DNA from: Chiloscyllium plagiosum
Taxonomy: Eukaryota
Direction: 5' to 3'
Assembly (NCBI RefSeq): GCF_004010195.1
Contig: NC_057727.1
Location: forward strand, 10,978,132 to 11,042,131
Length of the DNA stretch: 64,000 bases
Position 1 is the stretch's first letter. Every line of letters starts with the position of its first letter. Below are positions 18,505 through 61,458 of this stretch, piece by piece. The translations under genes were made by a program, and so were the position numbers. Under the pieces are notes generated by a model, which saw only the letters and a program-made list of their open reading frames with translations, did no database searches and was not told the DNA's origin.

Positions 18505-20200
18505 GCAAAGAAAATCTACAGCCCAGGAACAGGCCCTTTGGCCCTCCAAGCCTGAACTGATTCAAATCCACTGTCTAAACTTATCGCCCAATTCCTAAGC
18601 ATCTGTATCTCTCTGCTCCCCACCTACTTGCGTATCTGTCCAGACACACCTTAAAATAAATCTACCACGCCTGCCTCTGCTATCTCTGCTGGCAACTCGT
18701 TGCAGGCACCTACCGCCCTCTGTCTAAAGTACTTTCCACATGTATCCTCCTTAAACTTTTCACCTCTCACCTTGAATGCATGACCCCTCGTTATTGAATC
18801 CCTTACCCTGGGAAAAAGCTTATCTCTATCCACCCTGTCTATACCCTTCATGATTTTGTAGACCTCTGTCAGGTCCCCCCTCGATCTCCTTTTTCTAATG
18901 AAAACAATCCTAACCTACTCAACTTCTCTTCATAGTTAGCACCTTCCATACCAGGCAACATCCTCGTAAACCTTCTGTGCACCCTCTCCAAAGCATCCAC
19001 ATTCCTTTGGAAGTGTGGCGACCAGAACTGTACACAGTATTCTAAATGAGGCCGGACCAAAGTCTTGTACAATTTTAACATGACCTGCCAGCCCTTATAC
19101 TCAATACCCCATCCAGTGAAGGCAAGCGTACTGTATGCCTTCTTGACCACTCTGTTCACCTGAGCAGCCACCTTCAGGAACTTGTGGATCTCTCTGATCA
19201 TCAACTTTTCCCAAGGGTCTTCCATTTACATGATAGTTCGCTCTAGAATTAGACTTACCAAAATGCATCACCTCACATTTGCCTGGATTGAACTCCGTCT
19301 GCCACTTCTCCTCCCAAATCTCCAGTCTATCTATATTATCCGAGAGTCCCCTATGCTTTCTGCTATCCCACCAATCTTCGTGTCATCTGCAAACTTACTA
19401 ATCAGGGCTCTTCCAGATCATTTATGTATATCAGAAACAACAGTGGCCCCAGCACTGATCCCTTTGGAACACTATTGATTACCTTTCTCCATTTAGAGGA
19501 ACTCCCTTCAATTACTACTCTGTCTCCTGTTGCTCAGTCAGTTCTTTATCCACCTCGGTAGAACACCCTGCACAGCATGTGACTTCACTTTCTCCATTAG
19601 TTTACCATGGGGAACCTTATCAAATGCCTGACGAAAGTCCAATTATATGACATCTACAGCTCTTCCTTCGTCTGTCAACTTGGTCACTTCCTCAAAGAGC
19701 TCTAAGTTGGTACGCACAATTCTCCGCCCACTGCACAAAACCATGTTGTCTATCACTGATAAGCCCATTCTTGTTCAAATATGAATAGATGTTATCATTC
19801 TCCAGCAACTTTCCCACCACTGATGTCAGTTACCTGGAATATCCTTACTACCATCCTTGTACAGGGGGCAGTCCTCTGGCACTTTACCTGCATTTAAGGA
19901 TGTTACAAAGATATGTCAAGGCCCTAGCTATTTCCTCTCTCCCCTCCCTCAGCAACCTGGGATAGATCCCATCCGGTCCTGGGATTTGTCTGCCTTAATA
20001 ACCTCTAGCCTACCCAACACATCTTCCCTCCTAATTGTCAACATGATCCAGAGTAAACAAACTTCGATCTCTAATCTCAACATTCATCACGTCCCTCTCA
20101 TCAGTGAACACTGATGCAAAGTAATCATTGAAAATTTACCCATTTTCTCAGGTTTGACACACAGTCTTCCTTATCCTTCAGTGGACCAACTCTCTCTCTA
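18505..20200 (-). mobile_element. CR1 LINE, truncated
   Basis: LYKTLVRPHLEYCVQFWSPH; same subfamily as 36420-38187. Confidence 0.85.
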
Positions 20201-36419: not shown

Positions 36420-39400
36420 AGAGGATAACTAGAGAAAGGGTTGGCCCACTCAAGAAGAAAGGAGGAAAGTTATGTGTGGAGTCAGAGAAAATGGGTGAGG
36501 TTCGTAATGAGTACTTTGCATGAGGGACATGATGGATGTTGGGGTTAGGGATAGATGTTTGAATACTCTAGGTCAAGTCGGCATACGGAGGGAGAAAGTG
36601 TTGAGTATTCTAAAAGTTATTAAGGGAGACAAGTCCCCAGGTCCGGATGGGACCTATGCTGCTACCTTCAGGTTACTGAGGGAAGCAAGAGAGGAAATAG
36701 CTGGGGCCTTAACAGATATCTTTACAGCATCCTTGAACTCAGGTGAGTCCCGGAGGACTGGTGATTTGCTAATGTTGTCCCCTTGTTTAAGGGTAGAAGG
36801 GATAATCTAGGTAATTATTGACTGGTGAGCCTGATGTCAGTGATAGGGAAGGGGCTGGAGAAGCTACTGAGGGATAGGATCTATTTACATTTGGAAGAAA
36901 ATGGGCTTATCAATGATAGGCAACATGGTTTAATGCATGTTGCAGGGAAGGTCATGTCCTACCAACTTAATAGAATTCTTTTAGGAAGTGACAAAGTTGA
37001 TTGATGAGGGAAGGGCAGCAGATGTCACATACATGGACTTCAGTAAGGCATTTGATAAGGTTTCCCCATGGTAGGCTGATGGAGAAAGTGAAGTCGCATG
37101 GGGTCCAGGGTGTACTAACTACATGGATAGAGAACTGGCTGGGCAGCAGGAAACAGAGAGTAAATAGTGGAAGAGAGTTTCTCAAAATGGAGAACTATAA
37201 CCAGTGGTGTTCCACACGGATCTGTGTTGGGACCACTGTTGTTTGTGATCTGGAAGAAGGTATAGGTGGTCTGATTAGCAAGTTTGCAGGAGACACTAAA
37301 TTTGCTGGAGTAGCAGATAGTGAGGGGTTCTATCAGGGAATGCAGCAGAATATAGATAGATTGCAGAGTTGAGCAGAGAAATGGCAGATGGAGTTCAAAC
37401 CGGTCAAATGCGAGGTGATGCATTTTGGAAGATCCAATTCAAAAGTGACCTATACAGTAAATGGAAAAGCCCTTGGGAAAATAAATGTATAGAGAGATCT
37501 GAGTGTTCAGGTCCATTGTACCCTGAAGGTAGCAGCATAGGTCAATAAAGTGGTCAAGAAAGCATGCTTTCCTTCATCGGACGGGGTATTGAATACAACA
37601 TTTGGCAGATCATGTGACAGTTGTATCGGATTTTGGTCAGCCACATTTGGAATACTGTGTACAGTTCTGGTTGCCACATTACCAAAAGGATGTGGATGCT
37701 TTAGAGAGGGTGCAGAGGAGGTTCATGAAGATGTTGTCTGGTGTGGAGGGTGCTAGCTATGAAGAGTGGTTGAGTGGATTGGAGTTATTTTTATTAGAAA
37801 GATGGAGGTTGAAGGAGGACCTGATTGAGGTCTACAAAATCCTGAAAGGTATAGACAGGGTGGATAGCAAGAAGCGTTTTCCCAGGGTGGGGGAGTCAAT
37901 TACTAGGGGATCATGAGTTCAAGGTGAGAGGGGAAATGTTTAAGGGAGATATGCTTGAAAGACAGAGGGCGGTGGGTGCCTAGAACGTGTTGCCAGTGGA
38001 GATGGTAGAGGTCGGCACGATAACGTCATTTAAGATATATCTAGACAGTCACGTGAATGGGCAGGAAACAGAGTGTTACAGATCCTTAGAAAATAGGTGA
38101 CAGGTTTAGATAGAGGATCTAGCTCAGTGCAGGTTTGGAAGGCCTAAGGCCCTGTTCCTGTGCTGTAATCTTCTTTGTTCTTTCTTTGAAAAGCCAGGGA
38201 ACTATAGACTAGCAAGCCCGACATCAGTGGGGGGCATGTTATTGGAGGGAATCCTGAGGGACAGGATTTATATGTATTTGGAAAAGCAAGGACTGATTAG
38301 AGATAATCAACATGGCTTTGTGTATGGGAAATCGTGCTACACTAACTTGATTGAGTTTTTTGGAAGAAATAACAAAGAGGATTGATGAGGGCAGAGTGGT
38401 AGATGTGAACAATATGGATTTCAGTAAGGCGTTCGAGAAGGTTCCTCATGGTAGACCGGTTTCTCATGGTAGACCAGTTAGCAAAGTTGGATCACATGGA
38501 ATACAGGGAGAACTAGCCACTTAGATACAGAACAGGCTCAAAGGTAAAAGACAGAAGGTGGTGATGGAGAAAGTGAGGACTGCAAATGCTGGAGAGTCAG
38601 AGATGAAAGGTGTGACACTGGAAAAACACAGCAGATCAGGCAGCATCTGAACAGCAGGAGAGTTGACCGTTCGAGTATATGTCCTTCATCAGGAATGTGA
38701 TAGGGGTGGTGGAGGATTGCTTTTCAGGCTGGAGGCCTGTGACCAGTGATGTGCCACAAGGTTTGGTGTTGGGTCCAGTGCTTTTCGTCATTTATATTAA
38801 TAATTTGGATGTGAACATAGGAGGTATGATTAGTAAGTTTGCAAATTATACAAAAATTTGAGGTGTAGCAGACTGCAAAGATGGTTACCTCAGAGTACAA
38901 AGGGCCAATGGGCTGAGGAGTGGCAGATGGAATTAAATTTTGGGAAGGCTAATCAGGGTAGGACTTGTACACTTAATGGTAAGGTCCTGAGTAGTGTTGC
39001 TGAACAACAAGATCTTGGAGTGCAGATTCATAGTTCCTTGAAAGTGGAGTCACTGGTAGATAGGATAGTGAAAACGGCATTTTGTATGCTTTCTTTAATT
39101 GGTTAATGCATTGAGTGTAGGAGTTGGGAGGTCATGTTGCAGCTGTACAGGACACTGGTTAGGCTACTTTTTGAGTACTGTATGCGATTCTGGTCTCCCT
39201 GCTCTAGGAAAGATGTGAAACTTGAAAGGGTTCAGAAGTGATTTATAACAATATTGCTAGGGTTTGAGCTACAGGGAGAGGCTGAAAAGGCTGAGGCTGT
39301 CGTCCCTGGCGTGTGAGAGGCTGAAGGGTGACCTTATAGAGGTTTATTAAATCCTGAGGGGCATGGATAGGATAAATAGACAAGGTCTTTTCCTTGGGTG

Positions 39401-41728: not shown

Positions 41729-43740
41729 TTCAAAGTTTGTGAGAAGATTTGTAGCTCCGGTGCTCGTTGTTGTGGTTCTGTTCGCCGAGTTGGGAATTTG
41801 TGTTGCAGACGTTTTGTCCCCTGTCTAAGTGACATCCTCAGAACTTGGGAGCCTCCTGTGAAGCGCTTCTGTGATGTTTCCTCCGGCATTTGTAATGGTT
41901 TGAATCTGCCGCTTCCGGTTGTCAGTTCCAGCTGTCCACTGCAGTGGTCGGTATATTGGGTCCAGGTCGATGTGTTTGTTGATAGAATCTGTGGATGAGT
42001 GCCATGCCTCTAGGAATTCCCTGGCTGTTCTCTGTTTGGCTTGTCCTATAATAGTAGTGTGCATGGGATTTTGTACACTACGTTGGTTTTGCTCATGCTG
42101 GGTATCAGGTCCTTTGTTCTGGTGAATTGTTGTCTGAGAGTGACTGTTGGTTTGTGTGCTGTTATGAGTCCTAATGGTCGTAGTAGTCTGGCTGTCAGTT
42201 CAGAAATGTTCATGATGTATGGTGATGTGGCTAGTCCTTTGGGTTGTGGCATGTCCTCATTCCATTGTCTTTCCCTTAGGCATCTGTTGATGAAATTGTG
42301 GGGGTATCCGTTTTTGGCGAATACGTTGTAGAGGTGTTCTTCTTCCTCTTTTTGCAGTTCTGGTGTGCTGCAGTGTGTTGTGGCCCTTTTGAACAGTGTC
42401 TTGATGCAAGTTCTTTTGTGTGTGTTGGGGTGGTTGCTTTTGTAGTTCAGGACTGTTCACGTCTATCGACAAAACCCTAGCCAGAGAAACAATAGCCAAC
42501 CTGCTGGACATACAGAACAGACAACAAGACGGGGAAACTATCAACAAAGACTGCATACTCAAACTACTGGACCTGTTCCTCACAACACACTTCACATTCA
42601 ACAACCAAATATATGAACAAATCTCTCTGGACTCATAGCAGAAGCTGTAATGCAAAGATTAGAACACAGTCTTACCGCAAATTCAACCCAAACTCTGGGT
42701 CAGATATGTGGATGACACCTTTGTAATTATTAAAAACACAGAAATAGAAAACACACACCGGATCATCAATGCCACACTCACAGGAATCAGATTCACTAGA
42801 GAGGAAGAAAAGGACAACCAACTCCCATTCCTAGACGTGATGGTACAGAGAACACCGAACGGAGAATTCACCACAAAGGTATACAGGAAAGCCACACACA
42901 CAGACCAAGTCCTGAACTCTGAAAGCAACTACCCCAACACACACAAAAGAACTTGCATCAAGACACTGTTCAAAAGGGCCACAACACACTGCAGCACACC
43001 AGAACTGCAAAGAGAGGAAGAAGAACACCTCTACAACGTATTCGCCAAAAACGGATACCCCCGCAATTTCATCAACAGATGCCTAAGGGAAAGACAACAG
43101 AATGAGGACATGCCACAACCCAAAGGACTAGCCACATTACCATACATCAGGAACATTTCTGAACTGACAGCCAGACTACTACGACCACTAGGACTCATAA
43201 CAGCACACAAACCAACAGCCACTCTCAGACAACAACTCACCAGGACAAAGGACCCAATACGTAGCGTGAGCAAAACCAACGTAGTGTACAAAATCCCATG
43301 CAAGGACTGCATAAAACACTACATCGGACAAACAGAAAGACAGCTAACGATCCGTATTCATGAACACCAACTAGCCACGAAACGACACGACCAGCTATCC
43401 TTAGTAGCCACACACGCGGATGACAAGCAACATGAGTTTTACTAGGACAACACTACTATTATAGGACAAGCCAAACAGGGAACAGCCAGGGAATTCCTAG
43501 AGGCATGGCACTCATCCACAGATTCTATCAACAAACACATCGACCTGGACCCAATATACCGACCACTGCAGTGGATAGCTGGAACTGACAACCGGAAGCG
43601 GCAGAGACAAACCACTACAAATGCTGGAGGAAACATCACAGAAGCGCTTCACGGGAGGCTCCCAAGCACTGAGGATGTCACCTAGACAGGAGATGAAACA
43701 TCTGCAACACAAATTCCCAACTCGGCGAACAGAACCACAA
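41729..43740 (+). mobile_element. Penelope-like element: inverted 3' copy (41729-~42450) joined to forward RT/GIY-YIG copy; 12-bp TSD CATATTCATGAA
   Basis: RYVDDTF, LPFLDV, VYRKATHT, VVYKIPC..C..HYIGQT..RIHEH; TSD at 41717-41728 and 43741-43752. Confidence 0.92.
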
Positions 43741-43855
43741 CATATTCATGAAGCCTAATAATCCCATATGGTCAATTGTGATGAGTCTTCGCCAATAAAT
43801 AAGGTACTTCTGTCTATCAGAGCTGATTAAATAATTATTCATGAAGTCAACTCAC

Positions 43856-44031
43856 TGTTCTGGTTCTGTTTGCAAAGCTGGGAATTTGTGTTGCAGACGT
43901 TTCATCCCCTGTCTAGGTGACATCCTCAGTGCTAGACAGAGGATGAAACGACTGCAACACAAATTCCCAGCTCGGCGAACAGAACCACAACAATGAGCAC
44001 CTGAGCTACAAATCTTCTCACAAACTTTGAA
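43856..44031. mobile_element. Small fold-back Penelope pLTR insertion
   Basis: Inverted pLTR halves; flanking direct repeat GTCAACTC(A/G)CT. Confidence 0.8.
43893..43932 (-). ncRNA. Minimal type I hammerhead ribozyme motif
   Basis: GCA-CUGAGGA-U-GUCACC-UAGACAG-GGGAU-GAAAC-GUC^UGC: all core nucleotides present, stem I GCA/UGC, palindromic ACGU stem III. Confidence 0.75.
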
Positions 44032-47820: not shown

Positions 47821-50275
47821 CAGACTGTCTGCTCTAACGACAGCTATAAAGTTCTGAGAAACATTGTCCATCATATTGGCCTCCATTATTTCAAAGTTTG
47901 AAAGTGCTATCTATTCTCTTTCCTGCACAGGAAGAGTTGTTGTCTAATTTCTGGCCACTTCCAGAATGAGGAGGTATTGCAAATAGTTGTATTGATTTCC
48001 GAAAATATAAGCTTCTGCAATGTTCCCAAAAATGAGAACTGTAGAGTCAACAGTTGCAACTATCAGTCATTACATATTCTTAAAGACTGACATTACTTGA
48101 ATATCTTTTTGTCAGGAGTGTACACAAGAATAATGAGTCTCACAATTTGAAAGGTGGTATTATTCAAAAAAAAATCCTCAACCACTCATCTATCTTCCAC
48201 ATGCCCAAAAATCATATCCTCACTAACATAGTTCCAAGACATCTGGTTCCTGGGTAAGAGAAAGCAAGTAACTTGGAACAACTTCAAGAGTGTTCAGGCA
48301 GAGAAATATGAAACAAGATCACATCATTCTGTTTCTTTATCTTATTATCTTATTATCACTTTCATCTTATAACCAATGATGAAATTTCTACCTTAATTTC
48401 ATTCCTTCTTATGATCATCTTACCCTTCACAAATCCTGTCTGTCCCTTGCTGAAATTATTCTGCAAAAGAAGAGTATAACCTTAGAATGGATAAAGTTTA
48501 GTCATTTGGATTAGGGAGCTAAAGTAATGTGTGGAAGCCCCTGTGTCAGTGTTCTACCAATGTACAGCCTGCACTGTCCACTCCAGCTTCTTGATGGCTT
48601 ACTCTTCCCAGAAGACGGCCTCTTGATATCCAGGAACTTCTCACAATACTTGTCTTTCTTCTTTTACAAGTATTGTGCACTGGTTTCTTATAACAAACGT
48701 GAATGCAGTGCATTATGGCGAGCATTTGAAAGATATTGCCAAGTGACTTCAGAGAGCTGAGGTGATGTAGCTGGTATGCAAAAATGTTAATTTTCAGATC
48801 TAAGTAATTACTGTTAAACAAAATGACAATAAATATGGTAAGATAGTGAGTGGACCTCTCCAGTGAAGTAATGAAGGTGTTTTGTCCAGCTACTAATTTC
48901 AGATTGTCATCAGTGTGTTGTTCTCTACAGTCTTATGGGAAGAAAGAGACAGCATCCAATATGTTATTAGTTTTTCTTCATCAAGTCATTAAATATTTAC
49001 TTTCATATGCCCAGTTCACAATTTTGCCTATGCCAAGGCCTCCATTAAAAGTGCTGTAAAGTCTTAGTTCTGATGAAGGGTAATTGGACCCAAAACATTA
49101 AATCTGATTTCTCTCCACAGATGCTGCCAGACCTGCTGAGCTTTTCCAGCAATTTCTGGGTTTTTTTTGTGGCTATAAAATCTTAGATGAATTATCTATG
49201 TCATATGCATGACAGTTATTTAAATCTTTTAAAATAATGAGTGCTTATCGATTGCTTGCCTAGACCATTTTCATCATTTTCAGTTTTTTTAAAGGCTTAA
49301 CACATTTTTCACAAATTCTACCACCATTATGTTTCCTGTGTTTATAACACCAATCTTTCTCAGTTTTAGCTGTAAAGATGATTAGCCAAAATTAAATCCA
49401 GGTCACTACAAATGTTTGTAAGGAAAATCCAGTAAAACCTCTGAATGACACATACTGGTCTGACTCATTCTACGTGCTTTAAAATGAGGCTACAATGTGT
49501 CCAGTACTGTATTTTCATTTCCAAGTATTGCTAATTTTTTTTTAGTAATCTTTTCCTCTGGATTGGAACTAAGTTTTATGGAGGAGTATGTAGGTCAGTA
49601 GTGCTTTGTTTCTTGAGCACTAGTTTACGTTTATCCAGTTTATCAAAAATGTGTATAAATCATGTTATTTTTCTGTACTCATATTTTACAAGAGTTGCTG
49701 AAAAGGTAATAGGTATTTAAACTAGCTAGCCTTGAGGTCTCTGGCAGAATCAGCACTAAAACAATCAGTGGGTGGAATTTCTTCAATGACCAAACACATC
49801 TAAATGATCTTATGAATTTCCACATGCTTTCTTCCAGCTGTGATATTCACATTGTCATTCAGTAAACCTGCCTTCATAGGTGCTCACACCAAAATCCACT
49901 GATTTTAAATCAGCCTTAAACCCCCAAAAGGGATTACATTAATTTAATGTGTTGCCACTACCAAAGTTGACTCAGCTATATAAAGTAAAGTACTGTATTG
50001 CAAATAAACAAAAAAATAGAAATTTCTGGAGAAACACAGCAGGTATAGCACCTTTTTTTAAATTTCAAAAATATACTTTATTCATAAAATTATTTTGATA
50101 TCTATACAATTGGTGATGCCATATGTACATATACATTCCATTTCTTTACATACAGAGATCGGAATTAATCATTCGTATATACAAGTCTGTACATTGACCA
50201 TTCAGATATTTTGCTGAGGTGTCAGCAGAGCCCAACTACTGAGTGGGCCCCCTATTCTTCTTAGGCAGGCAGACC

Positions 50276-53200
50276 TTATACAGTGGTCTTTCCCCACTGC
50301 GCCTTGGTAGCAGCTGCCACAAGCTTCAGCGCATCCCTCAACACGTAGTTCTGGACCTTGGAATATGCCAGTCTGCAACACTAAGTTGGGGTCAACTCCT
50401 TCAGCTGGAAGATCAACAGATTTCAGGCAGACCAAAGAGCATCTTTGACCGAGTTGATGATCCTCCAGGCACAGTTGATGATCGTCTCGGTGTGCGTCCC
50501 GGGGAACAGACCGTAGAGCATGGAGTCCCACATCACGGAGCTGCTCGGGACGAACCTCGATAAACACCACTGCATTCCTCTCCAGATTTCCTTTGCATAG
50601 GCACATTCCAGAAGGAATGTTTGACAGTCTCGTCCCCTCCACAGCTGCTTTGGGGACAGCATGCGGTGGGGCAGAGTGTCCAGCCGTGCATAAAGGATCT
50701 CACTGGCAGAGCCCTTCTCACCACCAGCCAAGCCAAGTGTTGGTGCTTGTTTGAAAGTTCTGGCAATGAGGCATTCTGCCAAATGACTTTGACAGTCTGC
50801 CCAGGGAACCGCTCGACAGGATCCGCCCTCTACTTTTCCAAAGGGTGTCAAGGACACTACATGCTGACCACTTCCTGATGGACTTGTAGTCAAAGGTGTT
50901 TTTCTTCATAAATTTCTCCACGAAGGACAGGTGATACAGAACGGTCCAACTACTTGGAGCTTTCCATGGCAGCAAGGCCAGGCCCATCCTTCGCAACATC
51001 GGGGACAGGTAGAACCTTAATACGTAGTGATACTTGGTCTTTGCATACCGGGAATCCACACACAGCTTGACACAGCCACACACAAAGGTGGCCATCAGGG
51101 TGAGGGTGGCATTTAGTATGTTTTTTCCCCCATTGCCCAGATCTTTATATGTGGTGTCCCTTCGGACCTGCTCCATCTTTGATCTCCACATGAAGTGGAG
51201 GTTGGCCCGGGTGACTGCGGCGGCACAGGTTCCGGGAATAGGCCAGACCTGTGCCACATATAACAACACTGACAGTACCTCACATCTGATGACAAGGTTT
51301 TTTCCTGCGATGGAGAGCGACCATTGCTCCCATCTGCCTAGTTTTGCCTCACTTTACTGATACGCTTCTCCCAAGACTTGGCGCATGCTCCAGCCCCTCC
51401 GAACCAAATACCCAGCACCTTCAGACGGTCAGTCCTGACGGTGAAGTGGATCGAGGATTGGTTGGCCCAGTTCCCGAAGAGCATGGCCTCGCTCTTGCCT
51501 TGGTTGACCTTGGCCTCCCTTGGCCCGTTTGAACTGGTCACTTATGCACATGAGTCTGTGCACAGACAGTGTATCCAAGCAGAAAACGGCGATGTCTCCA
51601 TGTACAGGGAGGCCTTAACCTGTAGGCCCCTACTGCCAGGAATAGTCACCCCTCTCAGGCTCGTATCCTTCATGATGGACTCAGCAAATGGCTCTATGCA
51701 GCACACAAACAAGGCAGGAGGGAAGCTGTCTGATTCCCACCCATTGATTGAGATTGCACTGACAATATTGGATCCAATTGCAGATTCCCTCCCCAAAGCC
51801 CATTTTGGAGAGAACATCTCTAATATATGTATGCGATATCCTGTCAAAGGCTTTCTCCTGGTCCAGGCTGATGAGGCAAGTGTCCATCCCTCTGTCCTGC
51901 ACATAGGCAATCGTATCCCTGAGGAGTGCGAGACTCTCAGCGATCTTCCTGCCCAGTACAGCACAGGTTAGGTCAGGGTGAATCACCGATCCCAGAGCAG
52001 ACCTGACCCGGTTGGCGATGACTTTTGACAAGATTTTGTAATCTATGTTTAATAGTGAGATTGGTCTCCAATTTCTAATTTCCTCCCTCTCCCCCTTCCG
52101 CTTGTAGATGAGGGTGCTGATGCCTTTCCTCATGGATTCACTCATGGTACCTGCCAGAAGCATACTGACATACACCTCCAGCAGGTCCTGGTCAATCAAG
52201 TCACATAGAGCAGAATAGAGCTCGATCGGTAAGCCATCGCTTTCGGAATTTTTATTCTTTTCAAAGGACTCGAAGGCCTTGGTCAGCTCATCCAGAGATA
52301 GCGGCTGGTCCAGCCTCTCCTCTGTTCTGTCATCTAAGACCTCCGTGACAGAGGACAGGAATGAATTGGAGGCCACGCTGTCAGTTGGCTTCGTGTCATA
52401 CAGACTGGCATGGAAAGATTTGCTGATCCTCCTGATGTCAGCCTGAGATGACTTTACCGAGCCATCTTCTTCCTTCAGGCTGCTGAGCATGGAGTTCTCT
52501 TTGTACACCTTCTGGAAGAAGAAACGTGAGCACGTCTCGTCCTGCTCCACGGAGTGGACCCTGGACCGGAAGATTATCTTGGAGGCCTCCGAGGCAAAGA
52601 GCAGGCTTGCTGGCCCTTCACCTCCTGGAGGTCCTCCGTGACATCGACCCCCATCATCTGCAGCAGGAGCAGGTTCTGCATACTTTCCTGATGTTGGGAC
52701 AGTTTTTCCTGTCTCTCTCTCGCCTCCTGAACACCTTTGAGGATAAAGTACCTCTTCATGTTCCCTTTTAATGTTTCCCACCAGTCTGCTGGGCTTCACA
52801 GTTCTCCAACCTACGTAGTCCCTCTTGAGCTCCTCAGTGTTTCCTGGGGTCAACAGCTTTGTGTTCAGCTTCCAAATTCCCTTATCAGCCCGCTGCTCAT
52901 GCTGTAGGTGACAGTCGGCCAGCAGGAGGCAGTGGTCAGAGAAGAACACCGGCTTGATGTCAGTGGGTCTGACCGAGAACGTTCGGACACAAACAGGTAA
53001 TCTACCCTTGAGCGGATAGACCTGTCTGCCCATGACCAGGTGTATTTACTCTGCGATCCATCTGCACGGGTGCTGAAGACGTTGTGCAGCTTGGCATCTT
53101 TGACTGTTTCCATCAGGAATCTGGACGTGACATCCGGTTTACTTTACCCCCCCACCCCCGCCGCCGGATCGTCCATCTGCATCAATGGTACAGTTGAAGT

Positions 53201-53624
53201 CTCCAGCCAGAACGACCTGCCCGGACATAGCCAGCAACAGTGGAAGCTGCTGCAGGACAGCCAACCGTTCACTCTTACCCACTGGGGCATACACATTAAT
53301 AAGTCTCAGGGGTGCATTCCAGTATATGACGTCAGTGACGAGGAGGCACCCGCCCACCACCTCCTTAACCTCGGAGATGTTGATGATGCCTCCTCGCAGC
53401 TGGATACCGAGGCCTGAGGACCGGTTATCATTGTCCCCCAACCAAAGTGACGGCCCATGGGCCCACAAGCTCAACCATCTCCTGTAACTGCTGAGGTGCG
53501 GTATCCCTCACTCCTGCAGAAACAGGACATCGGCTTTAACATTGGCTAGGAAGGCCAACGTAGAAACACATTGCGTAGCAGATATAATGCTATGCACATT
53601 AATATTCGTGATCTTTATCACCAT
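50276..53624 (-). pseudogene. Copy A ORF2 (endonuclease / reverse transcriptase), frameshifted
   Basis: INVYAP, LAGDFNC, FSDHC, NWRPISLLNIDYKIL, SLDQEKAFDRISH, ETVKH zinc-finger region. Confidence 0.9.
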
Positions 53625-54891
53625 TTTAACAATTTATGAGGTTACCAGTGTACATTTGCCACTGGACCTGCCTCTCTGGGATAGCTGAATGCATCCCCCT
53701 GGTGAATGCGAACTGCTGGACCCTTGCAGGGCTGAGGTAGCTGTCCGGCTCCACGCTGCAGTCACTTCCCCGCTCTGGTGTCATCGGGCCGGGACCAGGG
53801 TCCGCACAGTCCAGTTCTATGTCTGACAGCCCCCTGGTTCTCACCGGGTGGGGGGGGTGGTCTTTACCGGTAACTTCAGAGGGTCCGTCATTTCCTGGTT
53901 GAGGGGTGTTACCCTCCTTTCTCCCCACGGCACTCTGTCTCTTCTTCTGGTGATGACCCTCCTTGCACGCGACTTCAGCATCTGAAGAGCTGCGTGTATC
54001 TTTACCATGCAGCTGCCGTTTCCCCCTTTGCTGGGAGGTTTTGGGGGCCTGGTAGGTTTTCCTCCTCCTGTTTGTTTTTTACAGGAATCCACTCCTCTGC
54101 CTCCATGGTTCCCTCCTCCTCCATTGCCTCCAACTGTCCTGTAGGAGCTTGGATCGGCTGCTGTACCTCCCCGCTGGCTGCCGTATGCTCCGCTTCAGCT
54201 TGTCCTTCCTTCCTTCTGGGTGCCACCAGACACCATTCCCCTCCTGGTTTGTGGTACCTTGCTGGTGTTTTGCAGTCCATGGCTCGCATTGCCACCTCCG
54301 GCCATCTGTGTGTAGGTAGTGGCCCCTCGTCTTGGGCATGCCTTGTACATGTGGCCCGCCTCTCCGCACAGATTACAGCTCTTGGCCTCTTTGCATTCCC
54401 GGGTCAGGTGACCCTCCTGCTTACAGTTCCGACAGATAGTCACCTTACAGTCCGCTGCCCATGTGGCCTGACCTCCCGCAGGTGCGGCAGACTTTCAGCA
54501 GCCCTGCGTATGTCAGGTAACCTCTGCTCCCTCCGATTGCAAAGCTGGAGGGTGGGTAGAGGATGTTCCCAATGGCATGGACCCTGCCGCTGCCGGTCCA
54601 GATCCCGAAAGAGTCAACCACATCAGTGCTTTCTCCCTCAACCAGGACGTGTCTTCTCAGCAAGGTCAGAACGTCAGCTGCTGGGATGTGGGGTTTGTAC
54701 ATGTGAATTGTAACAACCCAACTCCTCTGTGCAGGGAGCACACACAACAGGACTGCCAACAGGATGGAGAACAGAGGCTCCCCTTCCTTGTCTTTGAACA
54801 TGTTAAGGAGCTACTTGCACTGCTTCACACTCCTGTAGGTCGCATTGAAATAGCCTGCCCCAGGGAAATCCTGCAGGCAGTACACATCTAC

Positions 54892-55838
54892 TTTTTATTT
54901 CAAAAATATACTTTTTTCATAAAATTATTTTGATATCTATATAATTTGGTCATGCCATACATATGTATACATTCAATTTCTTTAAATACAGAGATCAGAA
55001 TTGATTATTCATATGTACAAGTCTATACATTGACGATCCAGGTATTTTGCTGAGGCGTCAGCAAGCTCACTTTCTGAGTGGGCCCCCTGTTCTTCTTCGG
55101 CAGGCAGTCCTTACACGGTGGTCTTTCCCCACCGCGCCTTGGCAGCAGCTGCCCCAAGCTTCAGCGCGTCCTTCAGCATGTAGTCCTGGACCTTGGAATG
55201 TGCCAGTCTGCAACACTCAGTCAGGGTCAACTCCTTCAGTTGGAAGATCAACAGGTTTCGGACAGACCAAAGAGCGTCTTTGACCGTGTTGATAATCCTC
55301 CAGACACAGTTAATGCTCGTCTCGGTGTGCGTCCCGGGGAACAGACCGTAGAACACGGAGTCCTGCGTCATGAAGCTGCTCGGGACGCACCACTGTATTC
55401 CTCTCCAGATTTCCTTTGCATAGACACATTCCAGAAGGAGGTGTGTGACAGTCTCGTCCCCTCCACAGCCACTTCAGGGGCAGCATGCATAAAGGATCTC
55501 ACAGGCAGAGCCCTTCTCACCACCAGCCAAGCCATGTCTTGGTGCTTGTTGGAAAGTTCTGGCGATGAGGCATTCTGCCAAATGACTTTGACAGTCTGCC
55601 CAGGGAACCGCTCAACAGGATCCACCCTCTCCTTTTTCCAAAGAGTCTCAAGGACACTACGTGCTGACCATTTCCTGATGGACTTGTGGTCAAAGATATT
55701 TTACTTCATAAATTTCTCCACAAAGGACAGGTGATACGGAAAGGTCCAACGACTTGGAGCGTTCCGCGGCAGTGAGGCCAGGCCCATCCTTCCCAACACC
55801 GGGGACAGGTAGAACCTCAGTATGTAGTGACACCAGGT
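54892..55838 (-). mobile_element. Tx1-clade LINE copy B, 3' ~0.95 kb, inserted in ORF1 of A; its 5' tip lies at 61117-61134
   Basis: Second copy of the 3' UTR and ORF2 C-terminus (..ARWGKTTV*). Confidence 0.88.
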
Positions 55839-56049
55839 TTTTTTTAATTTCAAAAATATACTTTATTCATAAAAATATTTTGATGATCTGTACAATTGGT
55901 CATGCCATACATACGTCAACATCTTTGCATAGAGATATCAAGTAATCATTCGTATATACAGGTCTGTAAGTTTACCGTTCATACATTTAGCTGAGGCGTC
56001 AGTGAAGCCCACTTACTGCGTGGGCCCCTTGTTCTTTGGCAGGCAAACG

Positions 56050-59000
56050 TTACACGGGGTCTTTCCCCACCGCGCCTTGGTGGCAGCTGCCCCACGCTCC
56101 AGCGCGTCCCTCAACACATAGTCCTGGACCTTGGAATTGCCAGTCTGCAACACTCAGTCGGATGCTGCCTGAACTGCTGTGCTCTTCCAGCACCACTAAT
56201 CCACACTCAGTCGGGGTCAGCTCCTTCGGCTGGAAGATCAACAGGTTATGGACAGACCAAAGAGCGTCTTTGACCGAGTTGATGATCCTCCAGGCACAGT
56301 TGATGTTCGTCTCTGTGTGCATCCCAGGGAACAGACTATAAAGCATGGAGTCCCACGTCACGAAGCTGCTCAGGATGAACCTCGACAAGCACCACTGCAT
56401 TCGTATCCAGACTTCCTTTGCGTAGGCACATTCCAGAAGGAGGTGTGTGACAGTTTCATCCCCGCCACAGCCGCTTCGGAGGCAGTGTGCGTTGCGGCAG
56501 AGAGTCCAGGCATGCATAAAGGATCTCACAGGCAGAGCCCTTCTCACCACCAGCCAAGCCATGTCTTGGTGCTTGTTGGAAAGTTCTGGCGATGAGGCAT
56601 TCTGCCATATGACTTTGATAGTCTGCCCAGGGAACCGCTCGACAGGATCCGCCCTCTCCTTTTCTCGAAGGGTCTCAAGGACACTACGTGCTGACCACTT
56701 CCTGATGGACTTGTGGTCAAAGGTGTTTTTCTTCATAAATGTTTCTACGAAGGACAGGTGATATGGAACGGTCCAACTACTTGCAGCGTTCCACAGCAAT
56801 GAGGCCAGGCCCATCCTTCGCAACACCGGGTACAGGTAGAACCTCAGTACGTAGTGACACTTTGTGTTAGCGTACCAGGGATCCACACACAGCTTAATGC
56901 AGCTACACACAAAGGTGTCCATCAGGGTGAGGGTGGCATTTGGTGTGTTTTTTCCCCTGTTGCCCAGAGCTTTGTACATCGAGTCCCTTCGGACCCTGGC
57001 CATCTTTGATTACCATACAAAATGGAAAATGGCCCGGGTGACTGCGATGGCACTGGTTCTGAGAATAGGCCAGAAATGTGCCACATATAACAACACTGAC
57101 AATGCCTCACATCTGATGACCAGGTTTTTACCCGCGATGGAGAGCGACTGTAGCTTCCATCTGCCCAGTTTCTGCCTCACTTTCTTGATACGCTTCCCCC
57201 CAAGACTTGGCGCACGCCCCAGCCCCTCCGAACCAAATACCCAGCACCTTCAGGTGGTCAGTCCTGACGGTGAAGGGGATGAAGGATTGGTCAGCCCAGT
57301 TCCCGAAGAGCGTGGTGTCGCTCTTGCCTCGGTTGACCTTGGCCCCCATGGCCCGTTTGAACTGGTCACTTATGCACAAGAGTCTGTGCACAGACAACGT
57401 ATCCGAGCAGAAAACGGCGACATCATCCATGTACAGGGAAGTCTTAACCTGCAGGCCCCCGCTGCCAGGAATAGTCACCCCTCTCAGGCTCGCATCCTTC
57501 CTGATGGACTCGGCAAATGGCTCTATGCAGCACACAAACAAGGCAGGAGAGAGAAGGCAGCCCTGCCTGACTCCAGATCTGACTGGGAAGCTATCTGATT
57601 CCCACCCATCCATTGAGACTGCACTGACCAGTGTTGGTGTAGAGCTGTCTGATCCAATTGCAGATTCCCTCCCCAAAGCCCATTTTGGAGAGAACATCTC
57701 TCATATACGTATGTGATATCCCGTCAAAAACTTTCTCCTGGTCCAGGCTGATGAGGCAGGTGCCCAAACCCCTGTCCTGCATGTAGGTGATCGTATCCCT
57801 GAGGAGTGCGAGACTCTCAGCAATCTTCCTGCCCAGTACAGCACAGGTTTGGTCAGGGTGGATCACCGATTCCAGAGCAGACCTGATCCGGTTGGCGATG
57901 AGCTTTGCCAAGATTTTGTAATCTGCATTTAACAGTGAGATTGGTCTGCAGTTTCTGATTTCCTCCCTCTTCTCCCTTCCGCTTGTAGATGAAGGTCATG
58001 ATGCCTTTCCTCATCGATTCACTCATGGTACCTGCCAGAAGCATACTGACATACACCTCCAGCAGGTCCTGGCCAATCAAGTCCCACAGGGCAGAATAGA
58101 GCTCGACCGGTAAGCCATTGATTCCGGGAATTTTATTCTTTCCAAAGGACTCTAGGGCCTTGGTCAGTTCATCCAGAGATAGCGGCTGGTCCAGCCTCTC
58201 CCCTGTTCTGTCGTCTAAGACCTCTGTGACAGAGGACTGGAATGACTGGGATGCCACGCTGTCAGTTGACTTGGCGTCATACAGATTGGCACAGCAAGAT
58301 TTGCTGATCCTCATGACGTCAGCCTGAGATGACATTACCGAGCCATCTTCTTCCTTCAGGCTGCTGAGCATGGAGCTCTCTTTGTGCACCTTCTGGAAGA
58401 AGAAACGTGAGCACGTCTCGTCCTGCTCCACGGAGTGGACCCTGGACCAGAAGGTTATCTTGGATGCCTCCGAGGCAAAGAGCAAGGCTTGCTGGCCCTT
58501 CACCTCCTGGAGGTCCTCCGTGACATCGACCCCCATCGTCTGCAGCAGGAGCAGGTTCTGCATACTTTCCTGGAGTTGGGACAGTTTTCCCCTCTCTCTC
58601 GTCTCCTGAACACTTTTGAGGATGAAGAACCTCTTATTGTTCCCTTTTACTGTTTCCTACCAGTCCGGTGGAAACTCAAAGAGGGACTTCACGGTTCTCC
58701 AACCTGCGTGGTCCCTCTTGAGCTCCTCAATGTTTCCCGGGGTCAACAGCTTGGTGTTCAGCTTCCACATTCCCTTGCCAGCCCGCTGCTTGTCTTGTAG
58801 GTGACAGTCGGCCAGCAGGAGGCAGTGGTTAGAAAAGAACACTGGCTTGATGTCAGTGGATTTGACAGAGAACGTTCGGACACAAACAGGTAATCTATCC
58901 TTGAGCAGATAGACCTGCCTGCCCTTGACCAGGTGTATCTACGCTGCGATCCATCTGCAGGGGTGCTGCAGACGTCGTGTAGCTTGGCATCTTTGACCGT

Positions 59001-59507
59001 TTCCATCAGGACTCTGGACGTGGTGTCCAGTTTACTGTCCCCCCCACTGGATTGTCCATCTGTATCAATGATACAGCTGAAGTCTCTAGCCAGAATGACT
59101 GGCCTGGACGTAGCCAGCAACAGTGGAAGCTGCTGCAGGAGGGCCAACCGTTCACTCTTACCTGTTGGGGTGTACATGTTAATCAGTCTCAGGGGAGCGA
59201 TTCTGTGCATGACGTCAGCGATGAGGAGGAGCCCACCCACCACCTCCTTAACTTCAGAGATGGTGAAGTTGCCTCCTTGCAACAGGATACCCAGGCCAGA
59301 GGCGCGGCTGTCGTTGCCCCCCAACCAAACTGATGGTTCATGGGCCCACGAGCTTGACCATCTCCTGTAGCTGCTGAGGTGCGGTATCCCACACTCCTGC
59401 AGAAACAGGACATCGGCTTTAACGTTGGCTAGGAAGGCCAGCGTAGAGACACATTGCGTAGCAGATTTAATGCTACGCACATTAATACTGGCAATTTTTA
59501 TACCCAT
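56050..59507 (-). pseudogene. Copy C ORF2 (APE endonuclease, RT, zinc finger), frameshifted
   Basis: MGIKIASINVRSI..LFLQEC, GVRQGCLLSP, LYMDD, ETVTHLLLEC. Confidence 0.92.
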
Positions 59508-59508
59508 T

Positions 59509-60934
59509 TTAACAGTTTATGAGGTTACCAGTGTCTATTTTCTGTTGGTCCAGCCTCTCTGGGGTAGGTATCTGCATTCCTGTGGTGAACACGAACTGCT
59601 GGACACTCTGAGGGCTGAGGTAGCTGTCCGGCTCCATGCTGCAGGCATTTCCATGCTCTGGTGTCTTCAGGTCGGGACCAGAGTTCGCAGCGGGGCTGTC
59701 AGAGGATTGCTGCTCCCAGTTACCTGGAACTGTGGGGCAGTGGGTACCTCCTGGTTCTCACCGGGTGGGGGGGTGGTCTTTACCAGCCCCCTCAGAGGGT
59801 TCGTCATTTCCTGTTTGGGGGGTGCTGCCCTCCTTTCTCCCTGCGGCACTCTGTCTCTTGGTGAAGACCCTCCTTACGCCCATCCTCACCATCTGAAGAG
59901 CTGGCTGTATCCTCCTCATGTAGGTGTCGTTTCCCCCTTTGCTGGGTGGTTTGGGGAACTGGCCAGGTTTCCACTTGCTGGTTTTTACAAGAGTCCAGTC
60001 CTCTGCCTCCTTGGTTTGCTTCTCCTCCATTTCCTCCGTCTATCCTGTGGGAGCTTGGATTGGCTGCTGCACCTCCCCACTGGCTGCCATCTGCTCCGCT
60101 CCATTCTTCTGGGTGCCCCCAGACACCATTTCCCTGATGGTTTGTGGTACCTTGCTGGCCTTTTGCAGTCCACGGCTCGCATTGCCATCTCCAGCCATCT
60201 GTGCGTAGGTGGTGGTCCCTCGTCTTGGGCAGGCTTTGTACACGTGGCCCGCCTCTGCACAGATTGCAGTTCTTGGCTTCTTTGCATTCCTTAGTGGGTG
60301 ACCCTCCTTCTTGCAGTTTCGACAAATGGTGACCTTACAGTCCGCCGCCATGTGGCCTGACCTCCCGCAGGTTCGGCACACTTTCGGCTGCCCTGCGTAC
60401 ATCATGTACCCTCTGCTCCCTCCGATTGCAAAGCTGGAGGTTGGGTGGAGGATGTTCCCACTGGCATCGACCCTGACAGTTATCCTGACCTGCCGTTTGC
60501 TGGTCCAGATCCCGAAAGGGTTGACCACATTGGTGCTTTCTCCCTCAACCTGGACGTACCTTCTCAGGAAGTTCAGGACGTCAGCTGCTGGGACGTGGGG
60601 GTTGTACATATGAATCGTAACCACCCCACTCCTCTGTGCAGGAAACACACACAACGGGACCGCCAACAAGATGGAGAACAGAGGCTCCCGTTCCTTCTCC
60701 TTGAAGACCTTCAGGAGCTGCTCACACTGCTTCACACTCCTGAAGGTCACATTGAAATAGCCTGTCCCAGGAAAATCCTGCAGGCAGTACACATCTGCTG
60801 CATCAAACCCGCAGCACTCCAGCAGAACCTTCTTGACGAACACCCTCCGATCGACCGGTGTACGATCCTTCACCTTCTTCACCTTCAACACCTGACTGTG
60901 TTGCGAATGCCCTGGTCTGGGCTGCAGATGTCAT
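59509..60934 (-). pseudogene. Copy C ORF1 (Tx1/ZCCHC3-like zinc-knuckle protein), frameshifted
   Basis: GIRNTVR, GIWTSKRQV, YAGQPKVCRTCGRSGHMAADC, CRNCKKEGH; its stop is 1 nt before the ORF2 ATG (TAA-A-ATG). Confidence 0.85.
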
Positions 60935-61088
60935 TGCTCTGAGGTTGGCTGGTCCCTGAATTGGCGTGAGGCCGAAGCCAGCATAAAGATCGACCAAGAG
61001 CAGGTCAGCACAACCAAACGCTCCTCCAACATCCAATCACGATCCAGCGATGATCTTCACTAGCTCTCATGACTCGAAGCTCCACTCT

Positions 61089-61119
61089 TGATCCTGGTAT
61101 CTCCCCTACCAGGTAAGTA
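61089..61119 (-). ncRNA. U1 snRNA 5' fragment forming the head of copy C (not a functional U1 gene)
   Basis: TACTTACCTGGTAGGGGAGATACCAGGATCA vs U1 TACTTACCTGGCAGGGGAGATACCATGATCA: 2 mismatches in 31. Confidence 0.92.
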
Positions 61120-61402
61120 GTGACACCAGGTAAGCTGCTTGGAATCCACAGCACTCAAGCAGCACCCTCTTTATGAGCACTGTCCGATCGACAGGTGTAT
61201 GCTCCTCCACCTTCTTCAAGTCAGTGGGCAGCTGCTGAGGCCATAGTTCCTAGATTGGCTGGTCCCTGAATAGGCCTTAGGCCGAAGCCAGCATGAAGAT
61301 CCACCAAGAGCAAGTCAGCACAACCAAATGATCCTCCAACGTCCAATCACGATCCAGTGATGATCTCAACTAGCTCTGATGACTCTCAACTTGACACCCG
61401 TT

Positions 61403-61446
61403 CTGATAAGAACAGACACTTGATCTTAGCCAAAAGGCTGAGAAGC
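61403..61446 (-). ncRNA. U2 snRNA 5' fragment forming the head of copy A (not a functional U2 gene)
   Basis: GCTTCTCAGCCTTTTGGCTAAGATCAAGTG-----TCTGTTCTTATCAG = U2 nt 4-52 with one substitution and a 5-nt deletion. Confidence 0.93.
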
Positions 61447-61458
61447 AGGTATAGCACC

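Follow-up and report, generated by a model that had tools for sequence, protein, structure and literature searches.

The window analysed here is a stretch of 64,000 nt of Chiloscyllium plagiosum DNA (contig NC_057727.1, positions 10,978,132 to 11,042,131). It contains three related long interspersed nuclear elements (LINEs) of the Tx1 type, nested on the minus strand: copy C (61119-55839) sits in the 5' junction of the truncated copy B, which in turn interrupts copy A (61446-50053) within its first open reading frame (ORF1). Copy A starts with a 5' piece of U2 small nuclear RNA (snRNA) and copy C with one of U1; we call such pieces heads. The features are listed below in window coordinates; snRNA positions are counted on the U1 (locus L062) and U2 (locus L073) genes of this genome.

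61444..61458, no strand: 5' target site duplication (TSD) of copy A, 15 bp, whose last 3 bases double as U2 nt 4-6
61403..61446, minus strand: head of copy A, U2 nt 4-52 without nt 34-38, the family's common U2 head (116 exact genomic matches across the deletion)
61135..61402, minus strand: linker, 5' untranslated region (UTR) core and ORF1 start (ATG 61244) of copy A, cut by copy B; 60797-61075 matches 61134-61385
61126..61134, minus strand: mini-head of copy B, 9 nt equal to U1 nt 4-12 and probably derived from it, joined to the 3' part of ORF2
61117..61131, no strand: 5' TSD of copy C, 15 bp, across the mini-head/ORF2 junction of copy B, whose last 3 bases double as U1 nt 2-4
61089..61119, minus strand: head of copy C, U1 nt 2-32 with two substitutions, subfamily U1a
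60935..61088, minus strand: linker and 5' UTR core of copy C, 90% identical to those of copy A
59520..60934, minus strand: ORF1 of copy C, broken, with two ZCCHC3-type RNA-binding domains and a CCHC zinc knuckle
56050..59507, minus strand: ORF2 of copy C, broken, with an apurinic/apyrimidinic (AP)-type endonuclease and a C-terminal zf-RVT; the reverse transcriptase (RT) domain was found in the matching part of copy A
55839..56049, minus strand: 3' UTR and short poly(A) of copy C
55824..55838, no strand: 3' TSD of copy C
54892..55823, minus strand: body of copy B, the 3' part of about 0.95 kb with poly(A), at the family's ORF1 hot spot within copy A
50053..54891, minus strand: remainder of copy A, with the rest of ORF1, a broken ORF2 (ATG near 53624), 3' UTR and poly(A)
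50038..50052, no strand: 3' TSD of copy A

The initial annotation had described copies A and C as sharing a 5' UTR behind different heads, each head lying within a 15-bp TSD with a 3-nt overlap at the 5' junction and no snRNA in the 3' flank. Direct reading agrees with this. Both TSDs are identical in 15 of 15 positions, the UTR cores are equal in 120 of 134 alignment columns (about 90% identity), and the snRNA remainder is absent from either 3' flank. Besides its 5-nt deletion, the head of copy A has one substitution; that of copy C may be read as continuing, in degenerate form, to about nt 41. Copy B is the last 0.95 kb of a 5'-truncated element, and every ORF of the three copies is broken. 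In Rfam the short U2 head scored 37 bits (E 7e-4), its length keeping it under the gathering score, and the U1 head was not listed. Since U1 and U2 heads recur in dozens of genomic copies, they are not due to chance.

The element measures 5.3 kb and has two ORFs, a poly(A) tail and TSDs. Pfam matches (PF23057, PF23058, PF00098, PF03372, PF00078, PF13966) correspond to two ZCCHC3-type RNA-binding domains and a zinc knuckle in ORF1, and to an N-terminal AP-type endonuclease (PF03372), RT and zf-RVT in ORF2. Named relatives of ORF1 came from sharks (52-69%) and gar. The best RT matches, at 30-45% in a similarity search, were mostly unnamed proteins of fish, newt and turtle, also of invertebrates, and one was named 'Transposon TX1 putative 149 kDa'. 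No entry named as Keno was among the RT or ORF1 matches. The family is best classed as a Tx1-type LINE in a shark-like genome, as the initial annotation had it. A 24-nt motif of the 3' end had 2392 exact genomic matches, sister families counted in. Between one and two thirds of the words that make up a headed copy were present in public sequencing runs under four organism labels; none of the runs listed was an RNA dataset.

Copies of the family were found in U1 genes. Rfam had listed several U1 matches of about 138 nt, which are U1 remainders behind the poly(A) of an element. The pattern of an A-run followed by U1 nt 42-52 occurred at 21 distinct places, 16 of them after a Tx1-type 3' end and four not, with one unread; locus L248 adds one more, giving 17 junctions. 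In all 17, U1 resumes at nt 37-42 after a Tx1-type 3' end and an A-run. Ten continue to nt 164 at at least 95% identity, two (perhaps a single locus) enter diverged U1 and five enter pieces of 13-28 nt. Eleven belong to this family or its ORF1-only form and six to sister families (L308-L310, L312-L314). A control pattern at U1 nt 82-92 gave no matches and a reversed control four, against 42 overlapping matches for the A-run plus U1 pattern. By chance, fewer than 0.002 insertions would be expected in a window of 8 bp across 30 genes, even if there were 50,000 copies.

Locus L252 preserves both sides of the insertion: the U1 upstream flank (32 bp) and U1 1-46 come first, then a truncated element bearing a mini-head of U2 4-13, its poly(A), U1 37-164 and the 3' flank; the TSD is 10 bp. 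At L311, U1 41-57 is sandwiched between the two copies of a tandem pair, and L253, a dispersed copy at a non-U1 site, carries U1 1-56 as its head. Contig C37 has six of the junctions in a span of 0.7 Mb. The junctions vary in the position at which U1 resumes (nt 37, 38, 39, 40, 41, 42), in element type (ORF2-bearing or ORF1-only) and in 3' clade (L248 vs L250/L252), and therefore represent several events. In the U1 clusters (L245, L246, L249; L061, L062, L067-L069, L072), an intact U1 gene is often followed, 100-400 bp further on, by the start of an element whose other end is joined to a U1 remainder and spacer; in L246 such elements are stacked three deep. A long duplication, a deletion or an unequal crossover are candidate origins of this arrangement. 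The repeated units may be long TSDs by which an intact U1 gene was restored, but the upstream and downstream units differ. At L314:342-423, the short 3' end of a sister element is followed by an A-run, U1 nt 40-67 and a second A-run, which looks like a 3' transduction of U1.

The U2 site was hit more rarely. Three of ten exact matches to U2 nt 39-61 follow a Tx1-type 3' end, which places the junction at U2 nt 39; one belongs to this family (L305) and two to sister families. The U2 flank from nt 39 is the 3' target of Keno, according to PMC6136364. The copies in U1 genes and those at the U2 position used by Keno bear out the expectation of the initial annotation that the family has copies in snRNA genes. 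In L305, U2 39-100 is identical to the canonical gene and followed by a second short tail, and the whole lies inside an unrelated repeat. This copy nests among U2-headed copies in a tree of 3' ends (Shimodaira-Hasegawa-like approximate likelihood ratio test, 97) and is read, from sequence, as a probable offspring of a U2-resident copy. The U1-site copy L248 falls into the clade around L305 and the U2-headed group (support 96). Locus-level head labels in this tree are unreliable where a nested insert provides the 3' end (L176, L190, L321, L342). In L307 a piece of U2 39-61 stands between two tails.

Besides U1 and U2, the family's own ORF1 is a hot spot, taking five of 113 3' ends as well as copy B. 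It lies about 100 nt into ORF1, in the same orientation (window 54880-54896 and 61134-61180; loci L007, L011, L024, L050, L056, L057, L085, L089, L098, L129, L182, L190, L258, L321, L342). Inspection of 85 3' flanks by eye revealed no shared flank other than this one. In the 3' flanks of random copies no motif position stood out beyond the first base, which by construction cannot be A. Both snRNA cut sites have GTTCT, then CAG a few bases further.

A search with the UTR of copy C, its head removed, gave 565 candidates, of which 40 were scored and 30 fetched: 25 had U2 heads, four had U1 heads and one was truncated in the linker. Among 113 distinct UTR-core matches, a set enriched by head-directed searches, 60 carried the U2 head with the deletion, 21 a composite head, 20 the U1a head, one another U1 head and one an undeleted U2 head; the ten unassigned ones included truncated, degenerate and two doubtful matches. 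A 25-mer spanning the U2 deletion had 116 exact genomic matches with one common junction, against three undeleted heads in total. The undeleted 24-mer matched four times, in one U2 gene, in two heads of the same junction and in one piece ahead of another head. The possibility that the heads were copied from variant snRNA genes already bearing the deletion or the U1 change was rejected: neither occurs in any of 12 U1 and 7 U2-type gene loci. A similar shortened U2 head is carried by a subfamily that is older and more diverged (L085:834 and L182).

The composite head consists of a variant-U2 piece, a piece of the family's ORF1 and U1 nt 9-26. It arose from a U1-headed copy that landed in ORF1 and was later given a U2 head; its U2 part matches the U2 variant gene L079. 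The genome has many divergent U2-like genes (L074-L084, L265, L268, L270-L274; 77-88% to canonical U2). Three of them (L075, L076, L084) have promoter-like upstream motifs, and one variant type supplied the composite head. In a further class, U1 to about nt 41 is joined to the UTR end on a 1.8-kb ORF1-only element. This relative (L246:1067-2826 on contig C37, L247, L249, L258-L260), headed by U1 nt 1-41, has a 3' UTR of its own and sits at the U1 site in three of its six loci. We take it to resemble the HAL1 type.

The heads are subfamily traits that are passed on by inheritance. Of 44 rows, 15 show a TSD (11-26 bp) whose end meets the head or reaches slightly into it, which upholds the earlier claim that heads travel with the element RNA; the other 29 gave no such TSD, many of them being gapped, containing nested inserts or lacking a 3' end within the stretch. 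Tabulation of the upstream sequence showed junctions fixed within subfamilies, the outcome that the initial annotation had tied to master loci. On contig C1, 80 regions taken in list order provided 88 3' ends, of which 85 were chained. None of 19 clean truncated copies in this sample (TSD of at least 10 bp abutting the body) was headed, and all three copies traced to the UTR start were. In a tree of UTR plus ORF1 with 49 rows (one nesting artefact, L001_U2d5, ignored), heads cluster, with 11 changes against a mean of 22.4 after shuffling and none of 200 shuffles as low. The U2-deletion head occurs on two distinct bodies, single crossovers were seen in L121, L033 and L148, and L263 changes subfamily affinity about 450 nt in. 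Given this clustering with crossovers and mosaic bodies, heads have been exchanged between bodies by recombination over time. The description of the heads as interchangeable thus holds on the evolutionary scale and fails for the single insertion.

U1 heads arose repeatedly (U1a, U1b, composite, L253), and one-off heads of unmutated snRNA are stacked on older heads in L253, L254, L255 and L348. L255 (L117) has a triple head of U2 1-33, U1 6-26 and the 3' half of the U2-deletion head; L256 (L122) has a hybrid of the U1a and U2-deletion types. At L091:1479-1560 a U2-deletion head stands almost directly on poly(A) inside a TSD, a 60-nt head-only retrocopy. L344 (L116) and L348 are composite-head copies on different contigs with a common extra 5' extension of about 20 nt or more, which suggests transduction from a dispersed master.

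We consider it probable that the family has a weak preference for the sites U1 nt 37-42 and U2 38|39, and that the heads are the co-transcribed 5' parts of those genes. A copy inserted at either cut would follow snRNA nt 1 to the cut plus a duplication of 10-24 bp. RNA made from the snRNA promoter would start at nt 1, would be capped and would carry the 5' piece of the snRNA. Its dispersed offspring would be the copies that we observe, with such heads inside their own TSDs, starting from nt 1 and often with an extra G. As the copies show, a few heads became fixed subfamily ends, were added on top of earlier heads and changed bodies through recombination. The snRNA-resident masters may have been lost, collapsed in the assembly or succeeded by dispersed masters.

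Support for this proposal comes from the U1 and U2 junctions, from L252, from the deletion shared by 116 heads, from the unheaded truncated copies and from the positions of the head ends. The 3' limits of the heads are near nt 39, 52, 57 and 60 for U2 and near nt 41 and 56 for U1. If an insertion at U2 38|39 duplicated 14 bp, U2 1-52 would remain in front, which is exactly the common head, and duplications of about 19-23 bp would yield the ends at 57 and 60 as well as the 39-61 piece of L307. Cuts at U1 37-42 would give fronts ending at 41, 46 and 56. Most head ends indeed lie at the cut or within one TSD length past it, and heads reach nt 1, never beyond. A G precedes nt 1 in 21 of 35 heads with intact nt 1, compared to a background of 22% (p 1.4e-6); two rows may be duplicates, and 20 of 34 gives p 3.8e-6. 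From work on L1, such an extra G is a mark of a capped template. It is because the ends match cut plus TSD, the starts fall on nt 1 and the extra G is present that we read the heads as 5' parts of the target genes.

A more far-reaching version is possible and is put forward tentatively. One family would home to the genes of both snRNAs, in each case about 37-41 nt from where transcription begins, live off the snRNA promoters and export capped, snRNA-headed RNAs, its heads having lost cut-site bases and thereby being shielded from self-cutting and from disturbing splicing. The dual homing may proceed through docking on the snRNA-gene transcription machinery or through a shared short motif. The 5-nt deletion of the U2 head ends exactly at the U2 cut and removes most of the bases by which U2 pairs with the branch point; that it shields the element is our conjecture.

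Several observations weigh against heads derived by co-transcription. The assembly holds no full-length copy behind an intact snRNA promoter. A promoter-like motif before U2 nt 1 was seen at two places only, both U2-type genes, in a search that needs exact U2 nt 1-18, the motif being a visual reading of the 80 bp upstream of U2-type genes and not a validated proximal sequence element. None of the 61 examined among 62 matches to U1 nt 9-26 combined a promoter, a head and a full element. The assembly has, however, a single canonical U2 gene, and it places many U1 genes on short contigs. The placing of masters in U1 and U2 genes by the initial annotation is matched by the gene-site copies and the fixed junctions, though a full-length master behind an intact promoter was not found. 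The U1 5' part stands directly in front in only one of ten U1-gene insertions, the others joining spacer or other DNA or having their 5' end outside the contig, and none of the three U2-site junctions lies within a whole U2 gene. On contig C1, which has no U1 cluster, none of 73 sampled 3' ends was in U1 or U2; genome-wide, 17 plus three snRNA junctions face 2392 3'-end motifs, so that more than 99% of copies are outside snRNA genes. A number of heads stop short of the cut (at U2 nt 33 in L255 and at U1 nt 26 in the composite head; likewise the mini-heads of copy B and L252). Among the 20 junctions with snRNA, eight are those of sister families or resemble copy C in no more than their last 35-55 bp, and several junctions of the U1 clusters could be duplicates of fewer events.

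The alternative that survives best, which we nevertheless rate as somewhat unlikely, is that reverse transcription occasionally ended with a template switch from the LINE RNA to free U1 or U2 snRNA, the heads so gained being fixed in masters with an internal or flanking promoter. Insertion into snRNA genes would then be a side effect of affinity or of homology between head and gene. Kojima explains the heads of SINEU elements in this manner (PMC4494074). The one-off unmutated heads on older heads would fit, a cap-type G would likewise be copied from the snRNA, and the promoter-driven master was not found. A 5-nt word common to U1 and U2 could join U1a and U2 heads, of which L256 is such a hybrid, and the mosaic bodies show that switching occurs. 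However, template switching should also cap truncated cDNAs, and none of the 19 clean truncated copies was headed. Neither does it predict head ends at or just past the cuts, nor 3' ends joined to an snRNA remainder and its genomic 3' flank.

U1 may instead be a mere hot spot of several Tx1 families, by a short motif or open chromatin, multiplied by tandem duplication, with U1 heads as rare amplified accidents without a role in propagation. This explanation is partly compatible with co-transcribed heads, but taken for itself we find it unlikely. That sister families end at the U1 site too, that six junctions crowd on contig C37 and that nearly all copies are elsewhere speak for it; the several independent events among the junctions and the repeated origin of U1 heads speak against it. 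Addition of heads anew at most insertions, by ligation (a route named in the initial annotation) or a trans-splicing-like joining of snRNA 5' ends to LINE RNA, is rejected as highly improbable: the mini-heads on two truncated copies (U1 4-12 in copy B, U2 4-13 in L252) would suit it but equally fit a cDNA jump to the element's own 5' end, as in the head-tail join of L091, and it is contradicted by the fixed junctions, by derived changes shared among heads (the deletion in 116 of them) and absent from the genome's snRNA genes, by the clustering on the tree and by the unheaded truncated copies.

Fusions of snRNA and LINE inside TSDs have a precedent in U6-L1 chimeras, which are one-off events on truncated L1 whose heads are not inherited. 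Among established systems, Keno is a Tx1 clade LINE specific to U2 snRNA genes (PMC4494074, PMC4640811, PMC6136364). Like the family described here, it is a Tx1 LINE with an AP-type endonuclease and has the same U2 3' flank from nt 39. In contrast to Keno, copies here are mostly dispersed, U1 junctions outnumber U2 junctions 17 to 3, and dispersed copies are snRNA-headed. Kojima 2015 spoke of specificity where more than 20% of flanks are in the target (PMC4494074); with no hit among the 73 sampled 3' ends and three U2 junctions against 2392 3'-end motifs, a Keno-like specificity was not seen. The family acts like Keno at the U2 site, yet we do not file it as Keno.

The initial annotation had known of no description of one autonomous family with both heads. 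As a claim of novelty this was too strong, as snRNA-headed Tx1 LINEs are already known from crocodilians: PMC4494074 describes three with U1 heads (Tx1-2_Crp, Tx1-2B_Crp and Tx1-4_AMi) and one with a U2 head (Tx1-11_Crp), each a family in its own right within a group related to Keno. These Tx1-Mar elements are autonomous Tx1 LINEs, are said to cluster with Keno and have U1- or U2-derived 5' ends, as here. Their stated targets are Mariner-N4_AMi and long terminal repeat (LTR) elements, not snRNA genes, and their heads, attributed to template switching, are distributed over separately named families. The shark family, as far as that text allows the comparison, differs by having both heads on one UTR and by inserting into the genes that supply them. 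SINEU-1 and SINEU-2 likewise have recurrent, stacked 5' pieces of U1 and U2, and their mode of transcription is also posed as a question; they are short and non-coding, whereas the shark element has 5.3 kb and two ORFs, and the same text reports no snRNA-gene insertion for them (PMC4494074).

Utopia shares the U2 site and shows weak specificity in some families, but has a restriction-like endonuclease instead of the N-terminal AP-type enzyme (PF03372) of the shark family (PMC4640811). Dada-U1 also targets U1 genes; it is a DNA transposon that uses another U1 site and produces a 6-bp TSD (PMC3706591). R2 borrows a host-gene promoter by co-transcription with 28S rRNA (PMC4494074), although there its own ribozyme trims R2 from the co-transcript. 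In 2015 the transposons listed in PMC4640811 as targeting snRNA genes were limited to Keno and Utopia (U2), Dada-U1 and Dada-U6. Our literature search, which ran outside Repbase, Dfam, most subscription papers and the supplements of PMC4494074, gave no report of a LINE targeting U1 genes. The present data add U1 genes as a LINE target. Kojima 2015 left the origin and transcription of snRNA-headed retroposons as a question, given that snRNA promoters lie outside the RNA (PMC4494074). The family ties heads to insertion sites in the genes that supply them, and co-transcription with the target gene would be a testable answer. An element with an AP-type endonuclease that enters two multicopy genes at a similar distance from the start site also offers a handle on shifts of LINE target choice, which bears on site-specific gene delivery.

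Elsewhere in the window, old repeats form a 1.7-kb inverted pair (18506-20200 vs 36430-38177), and a block of nested inverted repeats with about 95% identity occupies 41729-44031.

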